DNA of 64,000 nt from the IMG/VR virus record IMGVR_UViG_3300032050_000002. One strand, 5' to 3'. The DNA is from a virus (Duplodnaviria; Caudoviricetes). This document shows, piece after piece, positions 30,099 to 63,039 of this stretch; the first letter of the stretch is position 1; the number at the start of each line of letters is the position of its first letter. A program made the translations under genes and the position numbers. A model generated the notes under the pieces. It made no database searches. It had not been told where the DNA came from and saw only the letters and a program-made list of their open reading frames with translations.

Positions 30099-30782
30099 AT
30101 GAAAATTACGTTAATAAGTGATACTCACACCAAACATAATGAAATTACCAATGACTTAATTGGGGGTGATTTAATTATACACGCAGGTGACCTTAGTAAT
30201 ATGGGTTATCTTAATGAAATTAGAGACTTTTTTAAGTGGTTTAAGAAATTACCTTATGATGAAAAAGTCTTTATTTGTGGTAATCACGATTTTGGATTTC
30301 AAGATTATCCTGTTGAGATTGAAATGATGTTAAATGAACACCCTGAAATTGATTATTTACAAGATAATATGTATGTTATCGGAGATGATTATCAAAGTGG
30401 TATTAAAATTTGGGGTAGTCCTTGGCAACCAAGATTTTATGATTGGGCGTTTAATGCTGACAGAGGTGATGATATAAAACAACATTGGGATAAAATACCA
30501 AACGATATTGATATATTGGTAACTCACGGACCTGCCTTTGGTCATTTAGATAAAATATTAGGTCAAAGTAATTCTTTAGGTTGTGAGGAATTAACCAAAG
30601 CAATTGAGAGAATTAAACCTAAAATTCATATCTGTGGTCATATTCATAGTGGGTATGGTTACAAGTTTGATGGAACAACTCATTATTTTAATGCGGCGGT
30701 TTTAGGTGAAAGATACACATATCAAAATAAACCATTTCATTTTGATTGGAATCCTGAAACAAATGAAGTAACCTTCATATAA
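30099..30782 (+). CDS. Calcineurin-like metallophosphoesterase
   Basis: SDTH, AGD, GNHD, THGP, GHIH motifs. Confidence 0.9.
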   Translation: MKITLISDTHTKHNEITNDLIGGDLIIHAGDLSNMGYLNEIRDFFKWFKKLPYDEKVFICGNHDFGFQDYPVEIEMMLNEHPEIDYLQDNMYVIGDDYQSGIKIWGSPWQPRFYDWAFNADRGDDIKQHWDKIPNDIDILVTHGPAFGHLDKILGQSNSLGCEELTKAIERIKPKIHICGHIHSGYGYKFDGTTHYFNAAVLGERYTYQNKPFHFDWNPETNEVTFI

Positions 30783-30784
30783 AT

Positions 30785-30811
30785 AAAAAACCCCTCAACG
30801 AGGGGTTTTTT
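30785..30811. terminator. Bidirectional intrinsic terminator
   Basis: AAAAAACCCCTC-AAC-GAGGGGTTTTTT between convergent genes. Confidence 0.8.
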
Positions 30812-30812
30812 A

Positions 30813-31415
30813 TTAACTATTTAACGATTGATAAAAATGTTTAAAGTGTTTAATTCTGTCGGCAAGACCTAATGTACCTCCATTAACTCTTTTAGTTACC
30901 GCAGTTACGGTTGCATCATCCGCCCCCTTATCACAAATTTCCCATAACTTATTATTGTTAAAGAAAAATGCGGCTGAAGCCAAAGGATATTTTGTTGAGA
31001 CCAAATCAGGATTTACAACACAATCTTCTCCGATAAATTTAGTAAAGTTAGTGTAGTTACTTTTTCCGGTTAACTGAATATAACCTCTACCTCTAAATTT
31101 ATACCCTTCTTTAGTTGTTTCATCACCATTCCCCATTCTACTACCATAAACTCTTGACGCAATTTTTTCAGGATTTTTTGCATAAGATTCCGCCAAGTTA
31201 CCGGGAAAATACTTTGGGAAGACTTTCATAAGTCCGTCCTTAGAATAGTTTAGGTTTTCATTAACGGCCTTAAAATTACCCGATTCGTGGGCACATTGAG
31301 CCAAAAAATGAGCCAATCTTAAATTAGATGTAATGTTAAATTTTGACGCCGTATCAGGGATTTGAGATAATACATTGTCAGGTACATGACCTTTTAATTT
31401 TTCTACGTTTATCAT
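30813..31415 (-). CDS. Glycoside hydrolase family 19 (putative endolysin)
   Basis: LAHFLAQCAHESG...FRGRGYIQLTGKSNY...VTKRVNGG. Confidence 0.9.
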   Translation of the reverse strand: MINVEKLKGHVPDNVLSQIPDTASKFNITSNLRLAHFLAQCAHESGNFKAVNENLNYSKDGLMKVFPKYFPGNLAESYAKNPEKIASRVYGSRMGNGDETTKEGYKFRGRGYIQLTGKSNYTNFTKFIGEDCVVNPDLVSTKYPLASAAFFFNNNKLWEICDKGADDATVTAVTKRVNGGTLGLADRIKHFKHFYQSLNS

Positions 31416-31490: not shown

Positions 31491-33092
31491 ATGAATTATA
31501 AATTTAAAACTTATTTACTCCCTTCAATTATTATCATGTCTGTTTTTTTTATTCTTAAAACAATGATAATAATTGGTTATATTGAATCAACTCAAATTAC
31601 TAAAGTTGTTGAATATCTTTGTATAATACTATTTATACCATTATTTTATTTTTTGATGAAATCACAAAACGATGAATTAAAAAGTAATTTATTAAAGAAA
31701 ATAAAAGATGATGAGGGGTTTATTGATGCTGCTGCGATTATTTCAGTAGCGGATAAAAATGGTAAAATTACATACGTTAATAAAAAATTTGAGGATGTGT
31801 CCGGATGGTCTTTGGATGAAGTAATTGGTAAAGACCATAATATTGTTAACTCAGGACGACAACCTAATGGTTATTGGGGTAAAATGTATCAGACGGTAAT
31901 GAAAGGTGAGATATGGAATGATGTTGTTACCAATAAATCAAAATCTGGTGAATTATATTACGTTGACACATATATTAAAGCGAAATTCGATAATAATGGT
32001 AAATTAGAAGGTTTTTCATCAATTAGACAAGATGTTACAGAGCTTAAGAAAAAAGAGACGGAAATCCGTAATAGAATGAATGCGATTAATAAATCTAACG
32101 CGGTTATTGAGTTTGATTTAGAAGGAAACATTATTTTCGCAAATAATTTATTTATAGAAACTATGGGATATTCTCAACAAGATGAACTATTTGGGAAACA
32201 TCACAGAATTTTTATAGATGATGAATATGCAAAAAGTGAAGATTACTCTCTTTTTTGGAAAAAATTAAATGAGGGTATATTGTTTTCTGGAGAAATTGTT
32301 AGAATCAAAAAAGACGGGTCTTTGGTACATTTACAAGCCACGTATAACCCTATTATTGGTGTGGATGGTAAAATTTATCGTATTATGAAAATCGCAACTG
32401 ATGTAACTAATTCTTATGAACAAAAGAAAGAGATTGAGAAGAAAAACACTTACCTAGAACATGCTGCTAAAATATTGAGACATGATATGCACTCAGGAAT
32501 TAATACTTATATGCCAAGAGGACTTAGTTCATTAGAACGTAGATTAAAACCTGAAGATATTGAGTTGTTAAAGATTGAATCACCTCTTAAAATGATTAAA
32601 GAAGGTCTTAAACACTCACAAAAAGTTTATAAAGGTGTTTATGAGTTCACCAATCTTGTAAAGAAAGATGTTGTATTAAACAAATCTGAATGTAATGTAA
32701 AGAATATCCTTAATGATTATTTATCATCGACCGCCTATATAAGTCAAGTCATATTAGAAGATAATTTACCAACGATTGAAATTAATGAAGCGTTGTTTTG
32801 TACTGCGGTTGATAACCTAATAAGAAATGGTTTAAAGTATAATGACTCTGAAACAAAGTTTGTTAAGATATATTATGAAGGAGATTTAATTTTAATACAA
32901 GATAATGGTAGAGGAATTACTCAAGAAGATTTTAATTATCTGTCTAAACCGTATACAAGAAAAGAAGGTCAAAAAGAATCAGGAACAGGGTTGGGATTAA
33001 ATATTTGTGTTGCAATTTTAGAAGAACACGGATTTACAATTACGTGCGAGAAAAACGAAATTGGGACTAAAATGAAAATAAAAATAAAATAA
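31491..33092 (+). CDS. Membrane-anchored PAS-PAS sensor histidine kinase
   Basis: Two N-terminal TM segments; two PAS/PAC; H-box RHDMHSG, N-box NLIRNGLKY, DNGRG, GTGLGL. Confidence 0.9.
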   Translation: MNYKFKTYLLPSIIIMSVFFILKTMIIIGYIESTQITKVVEYLCIILFIPLFYFLMKSQNDELKSNLLKKIKDDEGFIDAAAIISVADKNGKITYVNKKFEDVSGWSLDEVIGKDHNIVNSGRQPNGYWGKMYQTVMKGEIWNDVVTNKSKSGELYYVDTYIKAKFDNNGKLEGFSSIRQDVTELKKKETEIRNRMNAINKSNAVIEFDLEGNIIFANNLFIETMGYSQQDELFGKHHRIFIDDEYAKSEDYSLFWKKLNEGILFSGEIVRIKKDGSLVHLQATYNPIIGVDGKIYRIMKIATDVTNSYEQKKEIEKKNTYLEHAAKILRHDMHSGINTYMPRGLSSLERRLKPEDIELLKIESPLKMIKEGLKHSQKVYKGVYEFTNLVKKDVVLNKSECNVKNILNDYLSSTAYISQVILEDNLPTIEINEALFCTAVDNLIRNGLKYNDSETKFVKIYYEGDLILIQDNGRGITQEDFNYLSKPYTRKEGQKESGTGLGLNICVAILEEHGFTITCEKNEIGTKMKIKIK

Positions 33093-34582: not shown

Positions 34583-36433
34583 ATGGGAAAAATTATAGGT
34601 ATTGACCTAGGAACAACAAATTCATGCGTTGCCGTAATGGAAGGTAACGAACCAGTCGTGATTACGAATAACGAAGGAAAAAGAACAACACCATCTATTG
34701 TTGGTTTTGTTAGTGAGGGTGAAAGAAAAATTGGAGACCCTGCAAAAAGACAATCGGTAACCAATCCGAATAAAACAATTTACTCAATTAAAAGATTTAT
34801 GGGCACTAATTTCACAGAGTCTAAAAGTGAGATAGAAAGAGTCCCTTATAAAGTAGTAAAAGGAGATAATAATACTCCAAGAGTTGAAATTGACGATAGA
34901 AAATATTCTCCACAGGAAATATCAGCAATGATTTTACAGAAAATGAAAAAAACCGCTGAAGATTATCTTGGAACTGAGGTTACTGAGGCGGTTATTACGG
35001 TACCGGCTTACTTTAACGATGCTCAAAGACAGGCAACAAAGGAGGCGGGTGAAATTGCAGGACTAACCGTAAAAAGAATTATCAACGAACCTACCGCAGC
35101 CGCCTTAGCCTACGGATTAGATAAGAAAGGTAAAGACCAAAAAATTGTTGTTTTTGATTGTGGTGGAGGAACTCACGATGTATCCGTATTAGAATTAGGT
35201 GATGGAGTGTTTGAAGTACTATCAACGGATGGAGATACTCATTTAGGCGGAGATGATTTTGACCAAGCGATTATTGATTGGTTAGTATCGGAATTTAAAA
35301 CCGAAAATGGGATTGATTTAACTAAAGATTCTATGGCGTTACAAAGATTGAAAGAATCCGCAGAAAAAGCGAAAGTAGAACTATCCTCAACAAGTTCTAC
35401 CGAGATTAACTTACCTTATATTATGCCGGTTGACGGTATCCCAAAACATTTGGTTAGAACGTTAACAAAATCTAAATTCGAACAATTAGTAGATAAATTA
35501 GTCGAAAGAACTATTGAACCTTGTAAATCGGCATTAAAAAATGCGGGATTAAAAACTGAAGAAATTGATGAAATTATTTTAGTTGGTGGAACAACAAGAA
35601 TTCCCGTAATTCAAGACGCAGTTAAAAAATTCTTCGGTAAAGAACCGTCAAAAGGAGTTAATCCTGATGAAGTAGTTGCGTTAGGAGCCGCTATCCAAGG
35701 TGGGGTTTTAGCTGGTGATGTTAAAGATGTTTTATTATTAGACGTTACCCCACTATCATTAGGTATTGAAACAATGGGTGGAGTTTTTACAAAACTTATA
35801 GAATCCAATACAACGATTCCAACTAAACGTTCGCAAGTATTCTCAACTGCCTCGGATAATCAACCAAGTGTTGAGATTCATGTATTACAGGGCGAAAGAG
35901 CGATGGCGAGAGATAATAAAACTATTGGTAAATTTTTCTTAGACGGAATTCCTCCGGCTATGAGAGGTACACCTCAAATTGAGGTTACATTTGATATTGA
36001 TGCAAATGGTATTATTAATGTATCCGCTTTAGATAAAGCAACTAACAAACAACAATCAATCAGAATTGAATCATCTTCAGGGTTGTCAAAAGAAGAAATT
36101 GAAAGGATGAAGAGGGATGCTGAATTAAATGCCGAAAGTGATAAAAAGGCCAAAGAAGATGTGGAGATTTTAAATATAGCGGATAGTACCGTGTTCAATA
36201 TCAAAAAATCTATGACAGATTTAGGTGAAAAAATAACTGAAGAACAAAAAAGTGAGATTAATTCTATAATTGATAAATTAACAGAGTCAATTTCTAAAAA
36301 AGAAATAGATACCGTAACAACTTTAGTTAATGAATTAAATGAAAAGTTTCATAAGATAAGTGAGGAACTTTATAAAACAGAAGAACCTTCAGATATTAAT
36401 CATAACGATGTAGAATTTGAAGAAGTTAAGTAA
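34583..36433 (+). CDS. dnaK: Hsp70 chaperone DnaK, full length
   Basis: [40 protein letters not shown]; C-terminus DVEFEEVK. Confidence 0.98.
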
Positions 36434-36437
36434 AATT

Positions 36438-36464
36438 AAAAACCCCTCAGTAGAGGGGTTTTTT
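36438..36464. terminator. Bidirectional intrinsic terminator
   Basis: AAAAACCCCTC-AGTA-GAGGGGTTTTT. Confidence 0.8.
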
Positions 36465-36465
36465 G

Positions 36466-36717
36466 TTAATTAGTGTCCTGTGTATTATCGGTTTTTTTTG
36501 TGGTTTTGTCTAAAAACTTTTCTACCACATTACCACCAATACAAACCAAAACAATAACTTTTACCGCATCAACAAGTTCTTCACTTGGTTTAATAGATTC
36601 GTGTTGATACGAATTTAGTAACATAGTTACTGCAATAAATAAAAATCCTAAGAAAGCTATAACTCTCTTAATTGAAGTGTCTCCACCTCCGAACATTGAT
36701 TTGATGAAATTTTTCAT
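36466..36717 (-). CDS. Small two-TM membrane protein, holin-like
   Basis: TSIKRVIAFLGFLF TM1, second TM, basic C-terminus. Confidence 0.5.
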   Translation of the reverse strand: MKNFIKSMFGGGDTSIKRVIAFLGFLFIAVTMLLNSYQHESIKPSEELVDAVKVIVLVCIGGNVVEKFLDKTTKKTDNTQDTN

Positions 36718-36768
36718 AATTATTATTTTTTATAATAAATATTTACTTTTCATCAAAAGTCTTTTATA

Positions 36769-36903
36769 TTAACGACCTTGACCTCTGTATGATTTTGGTT
36801 TCTGTTCTTTTGGTCCGTAATGTTTTTTTAATTTACCAACTTTCTTTTTACCGAAAGAAATTTTAGTTGATTTAGTTGTTCCTTTTGACTTAGTTGTTGC
36901 CAT
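36769..36903 (-). CDS. 44-aa highly basic peptide ending YRGQGR, not in the track
   Basis: MATTKSKGTTKSTKISFGKKKVGKLKKHYGPKEQKPKSYRGQGR; own TATTTATA motif upstream. Confidence 0.7.
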   Translation of the reverse strand: MATTKSKGTTKSTKISFGKKKVGKLKKHYGPKEQKPKSYRGQGR

Positions 36904-36937
36904 AATTTATATATTTTTTAATATAAATATATTGAAA

Positions 36938-37017
36938 TAAAAAAGGGGATAGTAGCGAACTTCCCCTTTTTCTGTTATCGTAACGATAACGGTCCTAAAA
37001 GTCCTCAGTTAAGAGGA
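36938..37017 (-). ncRNA. Three-hairpin element with two blocks matching 23S rRNA H69-H70 in swapped order (antisense on the transcribed strand)
   Basis: + strand 36979-36998 matches E. coli 23S 1909-1928 at 19/20; 36952-36964 matches 1930-1942 at 12/13; hairpins TCCTC/GAGGA, GTTATCG/CGATAAC, AAAAAGGGGA/TCCCCTTTTT. Confidence 0.65.
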
Positions 37018-37521
37018 TTATTTTTCTTTAATCAACATTAAACATCTCTTTAAATATTCTTTAGCTCTTGGAGTTGGGTCAGAGTGATTCAATACCTTTT
37101 CAATATCTTTGACTAATTCTTCACCATGTTCATTTTCTTTATAAAGTTCTATCACTTTATCCATAGCTCTGTGACAATCATTATTTGTCTCATCAAAATA
37201 ATGTTTATTTCTATAATTTCTTAAATGATTTAACAATTCATAAGATAAGTGTTCACCACCATCAGAAATATTTGGATGTAATCTTAGAGTTCTTAAAATG
37301 TCTAAAGTGTCAATCATTCCTTTTATACCCCCACGTCTTTTTTTAACGTTAGATGTATAATCATTGTAATCGTCAGAAGTTCCAACAATTTCATCCAAAG
37401 GCATTGTGTTGTCAGTTAAACATCTTGGTTTTTTTTCTTCTTTTTCTTCACCCATTTCTTCCAATAGGTGTTTTCTGATTACTTTACGAATATCAGATTC
37501 TTTTATCTTAATTTTTTTCAT
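37018..37521 (-). CDS. Hypothetical protein (KKIKIKESDI motif)
   Basis: 167-aa ORF; TATTTATA upstream; the rRNA-like element starts right after its stop. Confidence 0.75.
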   Translation of the reverse strand: MKKIKIKESDIRKVIRKHLLEEMGEEKEEKKPRCLTDNTMPLDEIVGTSDDYNDYTSNVKKRRGGIKGMIDTLDILRTLRLHPNISDGGEHLSYELLNHLRNYRNKHYFDETNNDCHRAMDKVIELYKENEHGEELVKDIEKVLNHSDPTPRAKEYLKRCLMLIKEK

Positions 37522-37761: not shown

Positions 37762-38187
37762 TTAATGTAATTTAATTTCAAATCTATCTTTCATCTGTTC
37801 GATTTTATCATCAGGAACTCCGTGAACATTCTCTCCATTATGTCTATTTTCAACAATGATAGTAAACACTTTATAACCATATTTTTTCGACAGTTCAAAA
37901 TAATGTGTCATTTCCCACTCCATAGTAAAAGTGTTAGAAACTACAATCTCACGATACCATTGGTCGTTAACCATACTATCTTTCATATAAGTCTCAACTA
38001 AATCCTGACAATACTTATGAGCATCTTTTATCTTAGACCCATCGAACTTATATTCACCTGTTTCTTTATCAATAAAATATTTGTCCGCCTCACACACCAA
38101 AAAATCTGAATTAACCAATTTTTTAGCGAATGTTGATTTACCACTACCAGGTAATCCACGAACTATGTATAAAACTTTTTCATCCAT
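37762..38187 (-). CDS. P-loop kinase (AAA_33 / N4BP2-like, polynucleotide-kinase-like)
   Basis: IVRGLPGSGKST, EADKYF, VVSNTF, HGVP motifs. Confidence 0.8.
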   Translation of the reverse strand: MDEKVLYIVRGLPGSGKSTFAKKLVNSDFLVCEADKYFIDKETGEYKFDGSKIKDAHKYCQDLVETYMKDSMVNDQWYREIVVSNTFTMEWEMTHYFELSKKYGYKVFTIIVENRHNGENVHGVPDDKIEQMKDRFEIKLH

Positions 38188-61818: not shown

Positions 61819-61927
61819 TTGTTGACTTCGTGGGTTTTAAGTGGAAGTCACCCAATAAAAGATAGATACAGAAATGGGACTATCAACAAATTACCCTTTG
61901 ACACCTACCTAAACGGTAGGTTTTTTT
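61819..61927 (+). ncRNA. Candidate small RNA with pseudoknot, flanked by a promoter-like site and a terminator
   Basis: TTGTT/AACAA, GACTTC/GAAGTC, loop TGGGT pairing with ACCCA, GATAG/CTATC; terminator ACCTACC/GGTAGGT-T7. Confidence 0.5.
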
Positions 61928-61974
61928 ATTTAAAAAAATTTGGTAAATTCAAAAAAAGTTCGTATCTTTGTATT

Positions 61975-63039
61975 ATGTTAGAGACTCTAAATAGATACTT
62001 TGAAGACGGACTTCTGTATAAACAGACTCACCCTACTCTTCCTTTAACTATATGGAATTACACCGAGAAAGTTCAATACGAGAACTTATGGGATGAAATA
62101 ACCATACAGACCAGAGGTTTGGTAACTGATGATAAGGGAAATATAGTTGCTAGACCTTTTAAAAAGTTTTTCAATTTAGAGGAAAAAAAACATACCGCAA
62201 CCCCTTACTTTGAAGTTTTCGATAAAATGGATGGTTCATTGGGGATATTGTTTAATTATGAGGGAGAATGGATAATGGCAACCAGAGGTTCATTCACCTC
62301 AGACCAAGCGGTTAAAGGATTTGAGTTACTTCAAAAATACGACTATAAAAGATTGGTTAAAGGTTTTACCTACCTATTTGAGATAATATACCCTGAGAAC
62401 AGAATAGTTGTTAATTATGGTTATGAGGATTTAATATTGTTATCTGTAATAGATAATAAAGATGGTTATGAATTAAAGATATTTGATGATTCTATCCATA
62501 TAGAAGGTATAAGATTAAGAAACCTATATAACAATTTAGGGTTTAAATTGGTTAAAAAATACGATGGTATAAAAGACTATAACACCTTAAAAAATATGGT
62601 TAAAGACAATGAAGAAGGTTTTGTGGTTAGGTTTTCAAATGGGGAAAGGGTCAAAATAAAAGGTGAAGAATATATAAGACTTCACAAAATAATGACCAAT
62701 GTATCAACCACCGGTATATGGGAAATATTAAGTACCGGTGGAAACTTTGAGGAAATACTTAAAGATGTTCCTGATGAGTTCTACAATAAAATAAAGGACT
62801 ACGAAAAAGAGTTGAGGTATCAATACTTTTCAATATCAGAATACTGCGGTAAATTACATGACGGATTTAGATATGGTAAATACGGTGATAAAGAAGAACC
62901 CACCAAAAAGGAATACGCTGAATTTGTTATGAAAAACGTAAAACCCGAATTCAGACCTATAATGTTTTTTATGTGGGATAAAAAGAATTATGACCAGATA
63001 ATATGGAAACTCATAAGACCCGAATTTAAAAAACTATAA
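61975..63039 (+). CDS. RNA ligase, T4 Rnl1-like
   Basis: ARPFKKFFN, KMDGS (motif I), FEII, EGFV, VKIK; start moved to ATG 61975 behind promoter 61939/61963. Confidence 0.9.
   Translation: MLETLNRYFEDGLLYKQTHPTLPLTIWNYTEKVQYENLWDEITIQTRGLVTDDKGNIVARPFKKFFNLEEKKHTATPYFEVFDKMDGSLGILFNYEGEWIMATRGSFTSDQAVKGFELLQKYDYKRLVKGFTYLFEIIYPENRIVVNYGYEDLILLSVIDNKDGYELKIFDDSIHIEGIRLRNLYNNLGFKLVKKYDGIKDYNTLKNMVKDNEEGFVVRFSNGERVKIKGEEYIRLHKIMTNVSTTGIWEILSTGGNFEEILKDVPDEFYNKIKDYEKELRYQYFSISEYCGKLHDGFRYGKYGDKEEPTKKEYAEFVMKNVKPEFRPIMFFMWDKKNYDQIIWKLIRPEFKKL

Follow-up and report, generated by a model that had tools for sequence, protein, structure and literature searches.

The closest described counterparts of the RNA reported here are RNAs that act by base pairing. 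The antisense RNAs of plasmids, such as CopA/CopT of R1 and RNA I/RNA II of ColE1, are small and stable hairpin RNAs that make loop-loop and single-stranded contacts and then extend the duplex; the gene of each lies opposite its own target, to which the RNA is complementary throughout. The base-pairing sRNAs, including those derived from 3'-UTRs, carry an unpaired conserved seed as well as a 3' terminator with a U tail, and the known ones target mRNAs or other sRNAs. Conserved antisense elements to conserved rRNA are found in the box C/D, H/ACA and U3 RNAs of archaea and eukaryotes, which act on pre-rRNA. Phages remodel translation with proteins and tRNAs, and a targeted full-text literature search returned no phage or bacterial RNA with a conserved complementarity to 23S or other rRNA.

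Here, we report on a small RNA gene of large freshwater phages which we have not found described anywhere. Like the plasmid antisense RNAs, its product is a small hairpin RNA with displayed loop and single-stranded segments, but its putative target is host rRNA instead of an RNA encoded opposite to it, and the complementary segments are permuted and interrupted.

Layout of the RNA gene and its family

The window, i.e. the whole stretch of 64,000 nucleotides that was analysed (IMG/VR record IMGVR_UViG_3300032050_000002), stems from an uncultivated freshwater jumbo-phage lineage. Near-identical DNA is present in lake and freshwater metagenomes from 17 studies, and related IMG/VR contigs measure up to 290-322 kb at a CheckV completeness of 99-100%; exact 50-mers from the end of the window had no match among viral or metagenome contigs. 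The window has a G+C content of 28-31% and codes for an HSP70, a PAS histidine kinase, a GMP-reductase-like gene, a thymidylate synthase, two tRNAs, a T4 Rnl1-type RNA ligase, a polynucleotide-kinase-like kinase and many ORFs without family. The HSP70/DnaK (34583-36433; Pfam E-value 3e-258) is full-length and is missing at this position in more distant relatives; the PAS-domain histidine kinase is encoded at 31491-33092. With the RNA ligase and the P-loop kinase, the phage has an RNA-repair toolkit. A near-perfect palindromic bidirectional terminator (AAAAACCCCTC...GAGGGGTTTTT) lies between convergent genes at 36438-36463 and at 30779-30814, and recurs in related contigs. The RNA gene and the features referred to in the following are:

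36939-37017, minus strand: the whole small RNA, about 79 nt as inferred from folds and covariance model R1
37002-37017, minus strand: hairpin P0 (UCCUC/GAGGA, 6-nt loop), starting 1 nt past the stop codon of the 167-aa gene
36988-36998, minus strand: block 1, UUAGGACC followed by GUU, complementary to 23S 1918-1928
36974-36990, minus strand: hairpin P2 (GUUAUC/GAUAAC, loop GUUAC), whose loop bases GUU(A) complement 23S 1911/1912-1914
36967-36973, minus strand: A-rich linker AGAAAAA, in alignment A2 (see below) variable in length and mostly A
36945-36966, minus strand: stem of terminator P3, with loop UUCGCUAC (plus-strand positions 36952-36959) complementary to 23S 1930-1937
36939-36944, minus strand: U tail of the terminator, a T run following P3 in nearly all family members
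37018-37521, minus strand: p167, gene of a 167-aa protein and usual upstream neighbour (RNA in 70/79 protein-homology loci)
36769-36903, minus strand: p44, downstream gene of a 44-aa basic protein ending in YRGQGR, with its own promoter-like box
36923-36929, minus strand: TATTTAT, promoter-like box of the next gene, by which the RNA is seen to close its transcription unit
61819-63039, plus strand: T4 Rnl1-type RNA ligase (phrog_562, E-value 7e-70)
37762-38187, minus strand: small P-loop kinase with polynucleotide-kinase-like matches, two genes upstream of the RNA

The initial annotation of this region had noticed two blocks resembling helices 69 and 70 of 23S rRNA in swapped order, and direct comparison with rrlH of E. 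coli MG1655 (23S 1909-1942, CGTAACTATAACGGTCCTAAGGTAGCGAAATTCC) confirmed the match. Plus-strand positions 36979-36998 (CGTAACGATAACGGTCCTAA) are identical to 23S 1909-1928 at 19 of 20 positions, the sole mismatch lying at 1915 as had been stated, and positions 36952-36964 (GTAGCGAACTTCC) are identical to 1930-1942 at 12 of 13 positions, with the mismatch at 1938. The order of the two blocks is indeed reversed relative to the rRNA, with 14 nt between them. On folding, the region forms the three hairpins described there, and does so on either strand (z = -4.2 and -5.2; none of 200 shuffles equally stable); both neighbouring genes are encoded on the minus strand, with the element directly past the stop codon of the one at 37018-37521. 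By our own arithmetic with uniform base frequencies, a two-block match of this kind has a chance of ~2e-6 per window. As ~250,000 windows had been scanned, a chance match was not excludable from this one copy; on its own, the copy is no proof, and the question had to be settled on relatives.

Seven viral contigs contain the exact 20-mer; in them, the 80-nt element is nearly unchanged next to a gene that is only 72% identical at the DNA level. In a first sample of loci reached through p167 alone (51-98% protein identity), the element was found just past the stop codon in 18 of 23. A degenerate pattern scan of viral contigs gave more than 117 loci among the matches listed, and 79 distinct RNAs among these matches were aligned (alignment A2). 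For an independent, protein-anchored sample, the best 80 of the 349 p167 relatives were taken without any selection on RNA sequence. At protein identities of 62-98%, the RNA followed the p167 stop codon in 70 of 79 of these loci, which gave 39 distinct RNAs with almost unchanged blocks and differing stems. Altogether, the family has more than 100 distinct copies among IMG/VR phage contigs, and five complete genomes of ~300 kb carry exactly one copy each. Within the window, the sole match of covariance model R1 is at 36939-37001 on the minus strand (81.4 bits, E-value 5.5e-14). Conservation of both blocks across phage contigs, which the initial annotation had put forward for checking, is thus evident in the relatives.

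Since the 23S-matching blocks proved to be the conserved parts of a large family, chance was dismissed as their origin. One rRNA-like pair of ordinary terminator hairpins would, by the arithmetic given above, be plausible for a single window, and yet the resemblance is concentrated in the family-invariant bases and persists across protein divergence down to ~50%. A fortuitous likeness is already contradicted by these family data and hardly deserves any further credence.

From 5' to 3', the members of the family consist of an optional P0, single-stranded UUAGGACC, P2, the A-rich linker, the P3 terminator and the U tail. A hairpin of -4 kcal/mol or better is predicted at the P0 position in 58 of 84 members, one subgroup being without it, and its stem sequences are unrelated among lineages (CCUC, CCCCAC, CCGC, GCGACUC and others). 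Two to four U precede the unpaired UUAGGACC across the family, and the GUU of block 1 forms the base of P2. Block 1 is nearly invariant also in the 39 distinct RNAs reached through the neighbouring protein alone. P2 is an uninterrupted hairpin of 6-7 bp with a GUUA or GUUU loop, of which the G and the UU are conserved at 90% or more. The stem of P3 is GC-rich and wholly different between lineages (GGGGA, GGGACA, GAGGAC, GCCAGG, GGUCGGA); UCGCUAC is always part of its loop of 8-9 nt and is invariant in the 79 distinct RNAs of A2. The mean predicted probability of being unpaired is 0.65 for block 1 and 0.86 for the P3 loop, as compared to 0.37 for the rest. P3 followed by UUUUUU in the window, and by the same arrangement in nearly all members, has the form of an intrinsic terminator and agrees with the ending proposed in the initial annotation; a simple terminator scanner misses it, its loop limit being 8 nt.

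None of the named RNA families accounts for this element, as had been suspected. With the whole window and gathering thresholds, Rfam returned two tRNAs and nothing else, and in a permissive Rfam 15 scan of 36800-37150 the best score was 20.6 bits against thresholds of 50-120, with no match to the LSU model. Searches of GenBank phages found neither p167 (tblastn) nor the RNA (blastn). When the pattern of the RNA was run against 185,000 bacterial and archaeal genomes, 50 of the 54 matches were 23S genes in antisense orientation; they came from Acidobacteriota, Chloroflexia, Bacilli, Myxococcota, Shigella and a flavobacterium. The one real family member sits on a 3.7-kb contig binned with a Polynucleobacter MAG, which may be a mis-binned phage fragment. 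As the matches in bacterial genomes are nearly all 23S genes, the target is universal and the family looks essentially phage-only. We conclude that this is a large, well-defined and unnamed RNA family that is missing from Rfam.

Functional strand and complementarity to 23S rRNA

In order to see at which level selection acts, the stems were examined for compensatory changes. In A2, 91.9% of the cells of P2 and P3 pair and 112 cells are changed on both sides; none of 500 shuffles reached this level of pairing and no slid register came close. In the independent protein-anchored set, 94% pair, again with 0 of 500 shuffles. Between 95.7 and 100% of the P2 cells pair, with changes that include AU to GC, and every one of the six stem pairs of P3 is changed on both sides. 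The stem covariation that the initial annotation had asked about is thus present in both hairpins.

The pairs in P2 also tell the strand. At one of them, the 79 members of A2 have U.G in 36 cases, C-G in 27 and U-A in 8, and in the protein-anchored set of 39 RNAs, U.G is found in 21 at one pair and in 10 at a second. Because these U.G pairs would be C.A mismatches on the plus strand, the RNA must be the minus-strand one, and the functional strand is the same as that of the flanking genes. Covariation and wobble pairs together thus bear out the structured RNA from the transcribed strand that had been proposed, with a conserved unpaired seed on variable, covarying helices as in base-pairing sRNAs.

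The annotation had also offered a plus-strand reading, namely a decoy for rRNA-targeting toxins or modification enzymes; more broadly, such an RNA with the sense of helices 69-70 could be a decoy or a mimic that engages ribosome factors as well. The plus-strand blocks do have rRNA sense, and hairpins with T runs form on that strand as well. This reading is nevertheless very improbable, considering the C.A mismatches that the P2 wobble pairs would leave on the plus strand both in A2 and in the independent set, as well as the missing plus-strand gene or promoter that could feed the site. Moreover, the fold of helix 69 is not reproduced: its loop bases are part of the P2 stem and variable. The strand identified as functional is the antisense one, hence no sense fragment or mimic of rRNA.

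We judge just as sceptically that the sequence works as DNA, be it as split halves of an I-CeuI-type homing site, as a recombination site or as the circle junction of a former rDNA element. In favour of the link to the I-CeuI half-sites made in the initial annotation, the conserved complementarity covers 1911-1937, which is the stretch of ~26 nt that I-CeuI recognises; in addition, the boundary between the blocks coincides with the top-strand cut of I-CeuI, and a circle junction would give the swapped order. On the other hand, compensatory changes and strand-specific wobble pairs indicate selection on RNA folding, the halves are permuted, no nuclease or recombinase domain is encoded nearby, and an overlap with I-CeuI is expected, as both track the most conserved 23S stretch. 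A contiguous I-CeuI-type site of ~26 bp with three mismatches or fewer is absent from the window and from the five complete genomes. We therefore no longer uphold this link.

The near-invariant bases of the family are the rRNA-complementary ones, the stems, the linker and P0 varying freely. The unpaired blocks complement 23S 1918-1928 and 1930-1936, and the P2 loop adds 1911-1914. We mapped exact complements against the whole 23S rRNA of E. coli; RNAduplex, which gave meaningless long-loop duplexes over the whole 23S, was replaced by this procedure. In 61 of the 79 members, the longest exact complement is located at 1916/1917/1918-1928 or 1916-1929, and in 43 of the 79 the second-longest is at 1930-1937 or 1929-1937. 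Sense, reversed and shuffled controls gave scattered complements of ~8 nt. By our own arithmetic, the probability that the near-invariant bases of one family complement two adjacent rRNA segments by chance is ~7e-5. A contiguous sense target with three mismatches or fewer was found neither in the window nor in the five complete phage genomes. These results uphold the antisense relation to helices 69-70 put forward in the initial annotation, the rRNA-complementary parts being the ones conserved in relatives.

In the Rfam 23S consensus, helix 69 is formed by 1906-1911 paired with 1919-1924, followed by a lone 1925-1929 pair, and 1926-1928, 1930-1934 and 1936-1944 are unpaired, so that both invariant blocks face single-stranded rRNA. 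Across from the single-stranded junction, on the two sides of G1929, are the UUAG of block 1 and the P3 loop; the counterpart of the 3' strand of helix 69 is GGACCGUU, and that of 1911/1912-1914 in the loop of helix 69 is the GUU(A) of the P2 loop. The target stretch is identical in essentially all bacteria, E. coli and Flavobacterium johnsoniae among them. In several Acidobacteriota/Acidimicrobiales 23S genes (L154, L156, L164, L175, L190), an insertion is located right after ~1931, within the same stretch that the RNA complements; these insertions are presumably introns at the known L1931-type site.

Variation within the blocks is limited. The variants GGAUC, GGACU, GGGCC and UCGCUAU keep the pairing with 23S through G.U, although these substitutions are all transitions that are not separable from mutation bias and thus constitute weak evidence. 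Others break end pairs with 23S (UUUGGACC, CCGCUAC and AGAGGACC). The initial annotation had attached significance to the modified nucleotide at 1915. In agreement with this, the bases opposite 1915-1917 vary across the family and are used for the P2 stem, but two members (L037 and L116) contain a perfect 21-nt antisense copy of helix 69 and are complementary there too. The suggested connection to MazF-mt6 fell away, as the complementarity shared by the family does not go beyond 1936/1937 and misses 1939-1943; that it reaches 1942 in the window reflects just one version of the P3 stem. From the sequences, the family looks like a remodelled antisense copy of 1906-1942, in which the terminator loop has taken up the part corresponding to 1930-1937.

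Between the targets of the two blocks, one base, G1929, is left unpaired, and this arrangement, together with the Rnl1-type RNA ligase and the kinase of the window and an RNA-repair-type HAD gene after the RNA in another lineage (L040, L120), raises the idea of a tether or splint: a 23S rRNA cut near G1929 by a host ribotoxin would be held by its ends for the phage RNA repair enzymes. We regard this as improbable. The antisense strand is itself discontinuous at G1929 and would make a poor ligase substrate, Rnl1-type ligases act on tRNA loops without a splint, and we know of no toxin that cuts at 23S 1928-1930. The HAD gene is not homologous to the neighbours of the RNA in the window, and these neighbours vary widely. 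For the same lack of homology, a general linkage to RNA repair via this HAD_SAK_2 gene, present in the one lineage, was rejected.

Genomic setting and proposed function

The window contains the motif TATTTAT 88 times, in many cases 0-30 nt ahead of an ATG, and this motif is probably a promoter element of the phage group. Among 126 distinct loci, it lies 20-29 nt past the loop block of the RNA in 56 and upstream of the RNA in 7. As the box follows it far more often than it precedes it, the RNA is normally the last element of a transcription unit. It lies 10-35 nt past a stop codon in most loci, and its 5' end may result from processing or from read-through of P0; in a few phages, the RNA is perhaps made from a promoter-like box just upstream. 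In a freshwater metatranscriptome (a single run), one contig of 151 nt was identical to part of p167 (37316-37466) and none covered the RNA; this points weakly to transcription of the operon in nature, as carry-over of DNA is possible.

The p167 protein has 349 relatives in IMG/VR, with 40 invariant columns in 45 sequences. It is mostly helical and contains two invariant Cys and the motifs DGGEH and ELYKENEHG. It had no match in Pfam or PHROG, and its AF2 model, which reached a pLDDT of 82 with a deeper alignment (52 at first), had no fold match in PDB or AFDB; matches in the Atlas were to unnamed clusters only. As an obligatory partner of the RNA, p167 was rejected, because two complete RNA-bearing genomes are without it. 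In loci without p167, the RNA is found beside unrelated neighbours (ribonucleotide reductase, a PD-(D/E)XK nuclease, a HAD phosphatase, an SprB-repeat protein), which makes it an autonomous module. The linkage to p44 is loose: the gene is near the RNA in 12 of 101 loci, and its product matches only unnamed clusters of 42-43 aa. In related phages, p44 is 54-76% identical and often located right after the RNA, sometimes 2 kb off or on the other strand. Two close relatives (L008, 6520-8461; L003, 3123-5022) have a 1.9-kb insertion between p44 and the RNA, corresponding to ~36912-36937 of the window; it encodes proteins of 213 aa and 420 aa and is flanked by a duplicated stretch of ~20 nt, and the RNA stays with p167.

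The location at the end of transcription units, shortly past a stop codon and in 56 of 126 loci ahead of a promoter-like box, and the classical terminator form of P3 would also suit a cis-acting 3'-end element, i.e. a terminator, a stabiliser of mRNA, a processing signal or a site bound by a protein of phage or host. In that case, the resemblance to antisense 23S would be left over from captured rDNA, which would fit the little-changed antisense copies of helix 69 in L037 and L116. A relic of this kind, however, would be expected to decay outside the bases read by the protein, yet the near-invariant bases are precisely the complementary ones, a coincidence with the low chance probability calculated above. 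In addition, the conserved bases are displayed unpaired and aimed at single-stranded rRNA, and the RNA follows unrelated genes and occurs once per 300-kb genome, unlike a general type of terminator. For these reasons, we consider a cis-acting element unlikely, while giving it real weight.

The best reading is that the RNA acts in trans as an antisense RNA against host 23S rRNA, probably in its nascent or free-50S form; in our estimate this is an even call on the sequence data. The size of the family, the selection at the RNA level, the strand, the conservation in an unselected sample, the mapping of the target and its accessibility support this antisense reading, as do the 23S genes returned by the pattern scan of bacterial genomes, the missing sense target in the phage genomes searched and, weakly, the substitutions that keep pairing through G.U. 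The perfect copies of helix 69 in L037 and L116 may be counted on the same side as putative intermediate forms. According to PMC7038079, which cites Kulik et al. (2017), a synthetic PNA against helix 69 inhibits growth of E. coli; by analogy, this precedent suggests that antisense inhibition at helix 69 is feasible.

In the antisense model, the gene would code for a small RNA of ~65-80 nt that is made from the minus strand, mostly as the last part of the transcript coming from upstream, and that stops at an intrinsic terminator of its own. The hairpins would serve as scaffolds that display UUAGGACC, the UCGCUAC of the terminator loop and the short loop GUUA. The RNA would first pair with 1925-1936, a stretch that is single-stranded in the secondary structure of 23S, with its 5' block and its loop on opposite sides of G1929, and thereby clamp this junction from both sides. 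Then, the GUU at the base of P2 could swap its internal AAC for the identical AAC of 23S 1918-1920, upon which helix 69 would open and the pairing would extend into its 3' strand. Helices 69-70, the region of bridge B2a, would thus be kept from forming or from working, most plausibly in nascent or free-50S rRNA, and the outcome would be less assembly of new 50S or less subunit joining, or rRNA marked for decay. The family with its strand, structure, conservation pattern and complementarity is shown by the data, and we infer from it the binding to 23S and every downstream effect.

Folding of helices 68-71 is a late event in 50S assembly. Bridge B2a is formed by helix 69 and the junction that follows it, which also touch tRNAs, release factors and the recycling factor. 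Late folding and engagement in B2a make nascent rRNA and free 50S the likely substrates. In its most specific form, which we put forward tentatively and somewhat short of even confidence, the model states that freshwater jumbo phages devote an RNA to pairing with the helix 69-70 junction of host 23S rRNA by a two-point clamp around G1929 with subsequent invasion of helix 69, and that it stops 50S maturation or subunit joining or triggers breakdown of rRNA for nucleotide salvage; this would make it the first RNA of natural origin to act in trans against rRNA in bacteria or their viruses. Several considerations speak against the antisense model. In the mature 50S, 1919-1924 are paired and the junction is engaged in tertiary contacts, and access may be limited to immature particles. 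Furthermore, rRNA is very abundant, a stoichiometric inhibitor would need high expression, and the phage needs ribosomes, too. Finally, descent from an rDNA fragment that is kept for another reason could have left the complementarity behind as a relic.

If the model is true, the RNA would be an antisense inhibitor of natural origin, tested by evolution, that is directed at a universal site of the ribosome, and viruses would have a new way of commandeering host translation or taking it apart. Antisense antibacterials could be modelled on the RNA, and late 50S assembly could be probed with it. Since the target sequence of E. coli is identical, the model is directly testable with synthetic RNA. 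Even with another function, a large and well-defined RNA family missing from Rfam would have been added.

Comparison with known systems

The rRNA-directed guide RNAs share with the phage RNA the conserved antisense elements to conserved rRNA, but the phage RNA has neither a pseudouridylation pocket nor a kink-turn, and partner proteins of this kind are not known in bacteria or seen nearby. In the 84 members tested for box C/D features, the C box RUGAUGA was found in none and CUGA in 5, never in the order C then D. There is no H/ACA pocket in P2; ACA follows P2 in 73 of 84 members, and the complementary blocks lie outside of any pocket. ARAGORN found no tRNA or tmRNA in 36700-37300.

A viral RNA element near a stop codon with conserved complementarity to host rRNA is also known as TURBS from caliciviruses and influenza B. 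TURBS, however, pair with the 18S rRNA of the small subunit, act in cis on re-initiation and lie upstream of the stop codon, whereas the phage RNA is followed by a gene with a promoter-like box of its own and is also found at sites away from coding genes. The I-CeuI site comprises the same ~26 nt of 23S (1911-1937), but as contiguous double-stranded DNA, in contrast to the permuted halves and the selection for RNA structure seen here. The synthetic PNA of Kulik et al. (2017), as cited in PMC7038079, is directed at the same rRNA helix, with which it base-pairs, and has an inhibitory effect on growth; going by that citation, it differs from the phage RNA in being artificial, in its backbone and in binding contiguously to the hairpin itself.

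With the plasmid antisense RNAs, the phage family has in common that members of the L037 type mirror the helix 69 hairpin, just as cis-antisense RNAs mirror their targets. The base-pairing sRNAs are alike in size, in the 3' terminator with U tail, in the conserved unpaired seed and in the position at a 3' end, and the phage RNA is set apart from them by having one of its seeds in the terminator loop.
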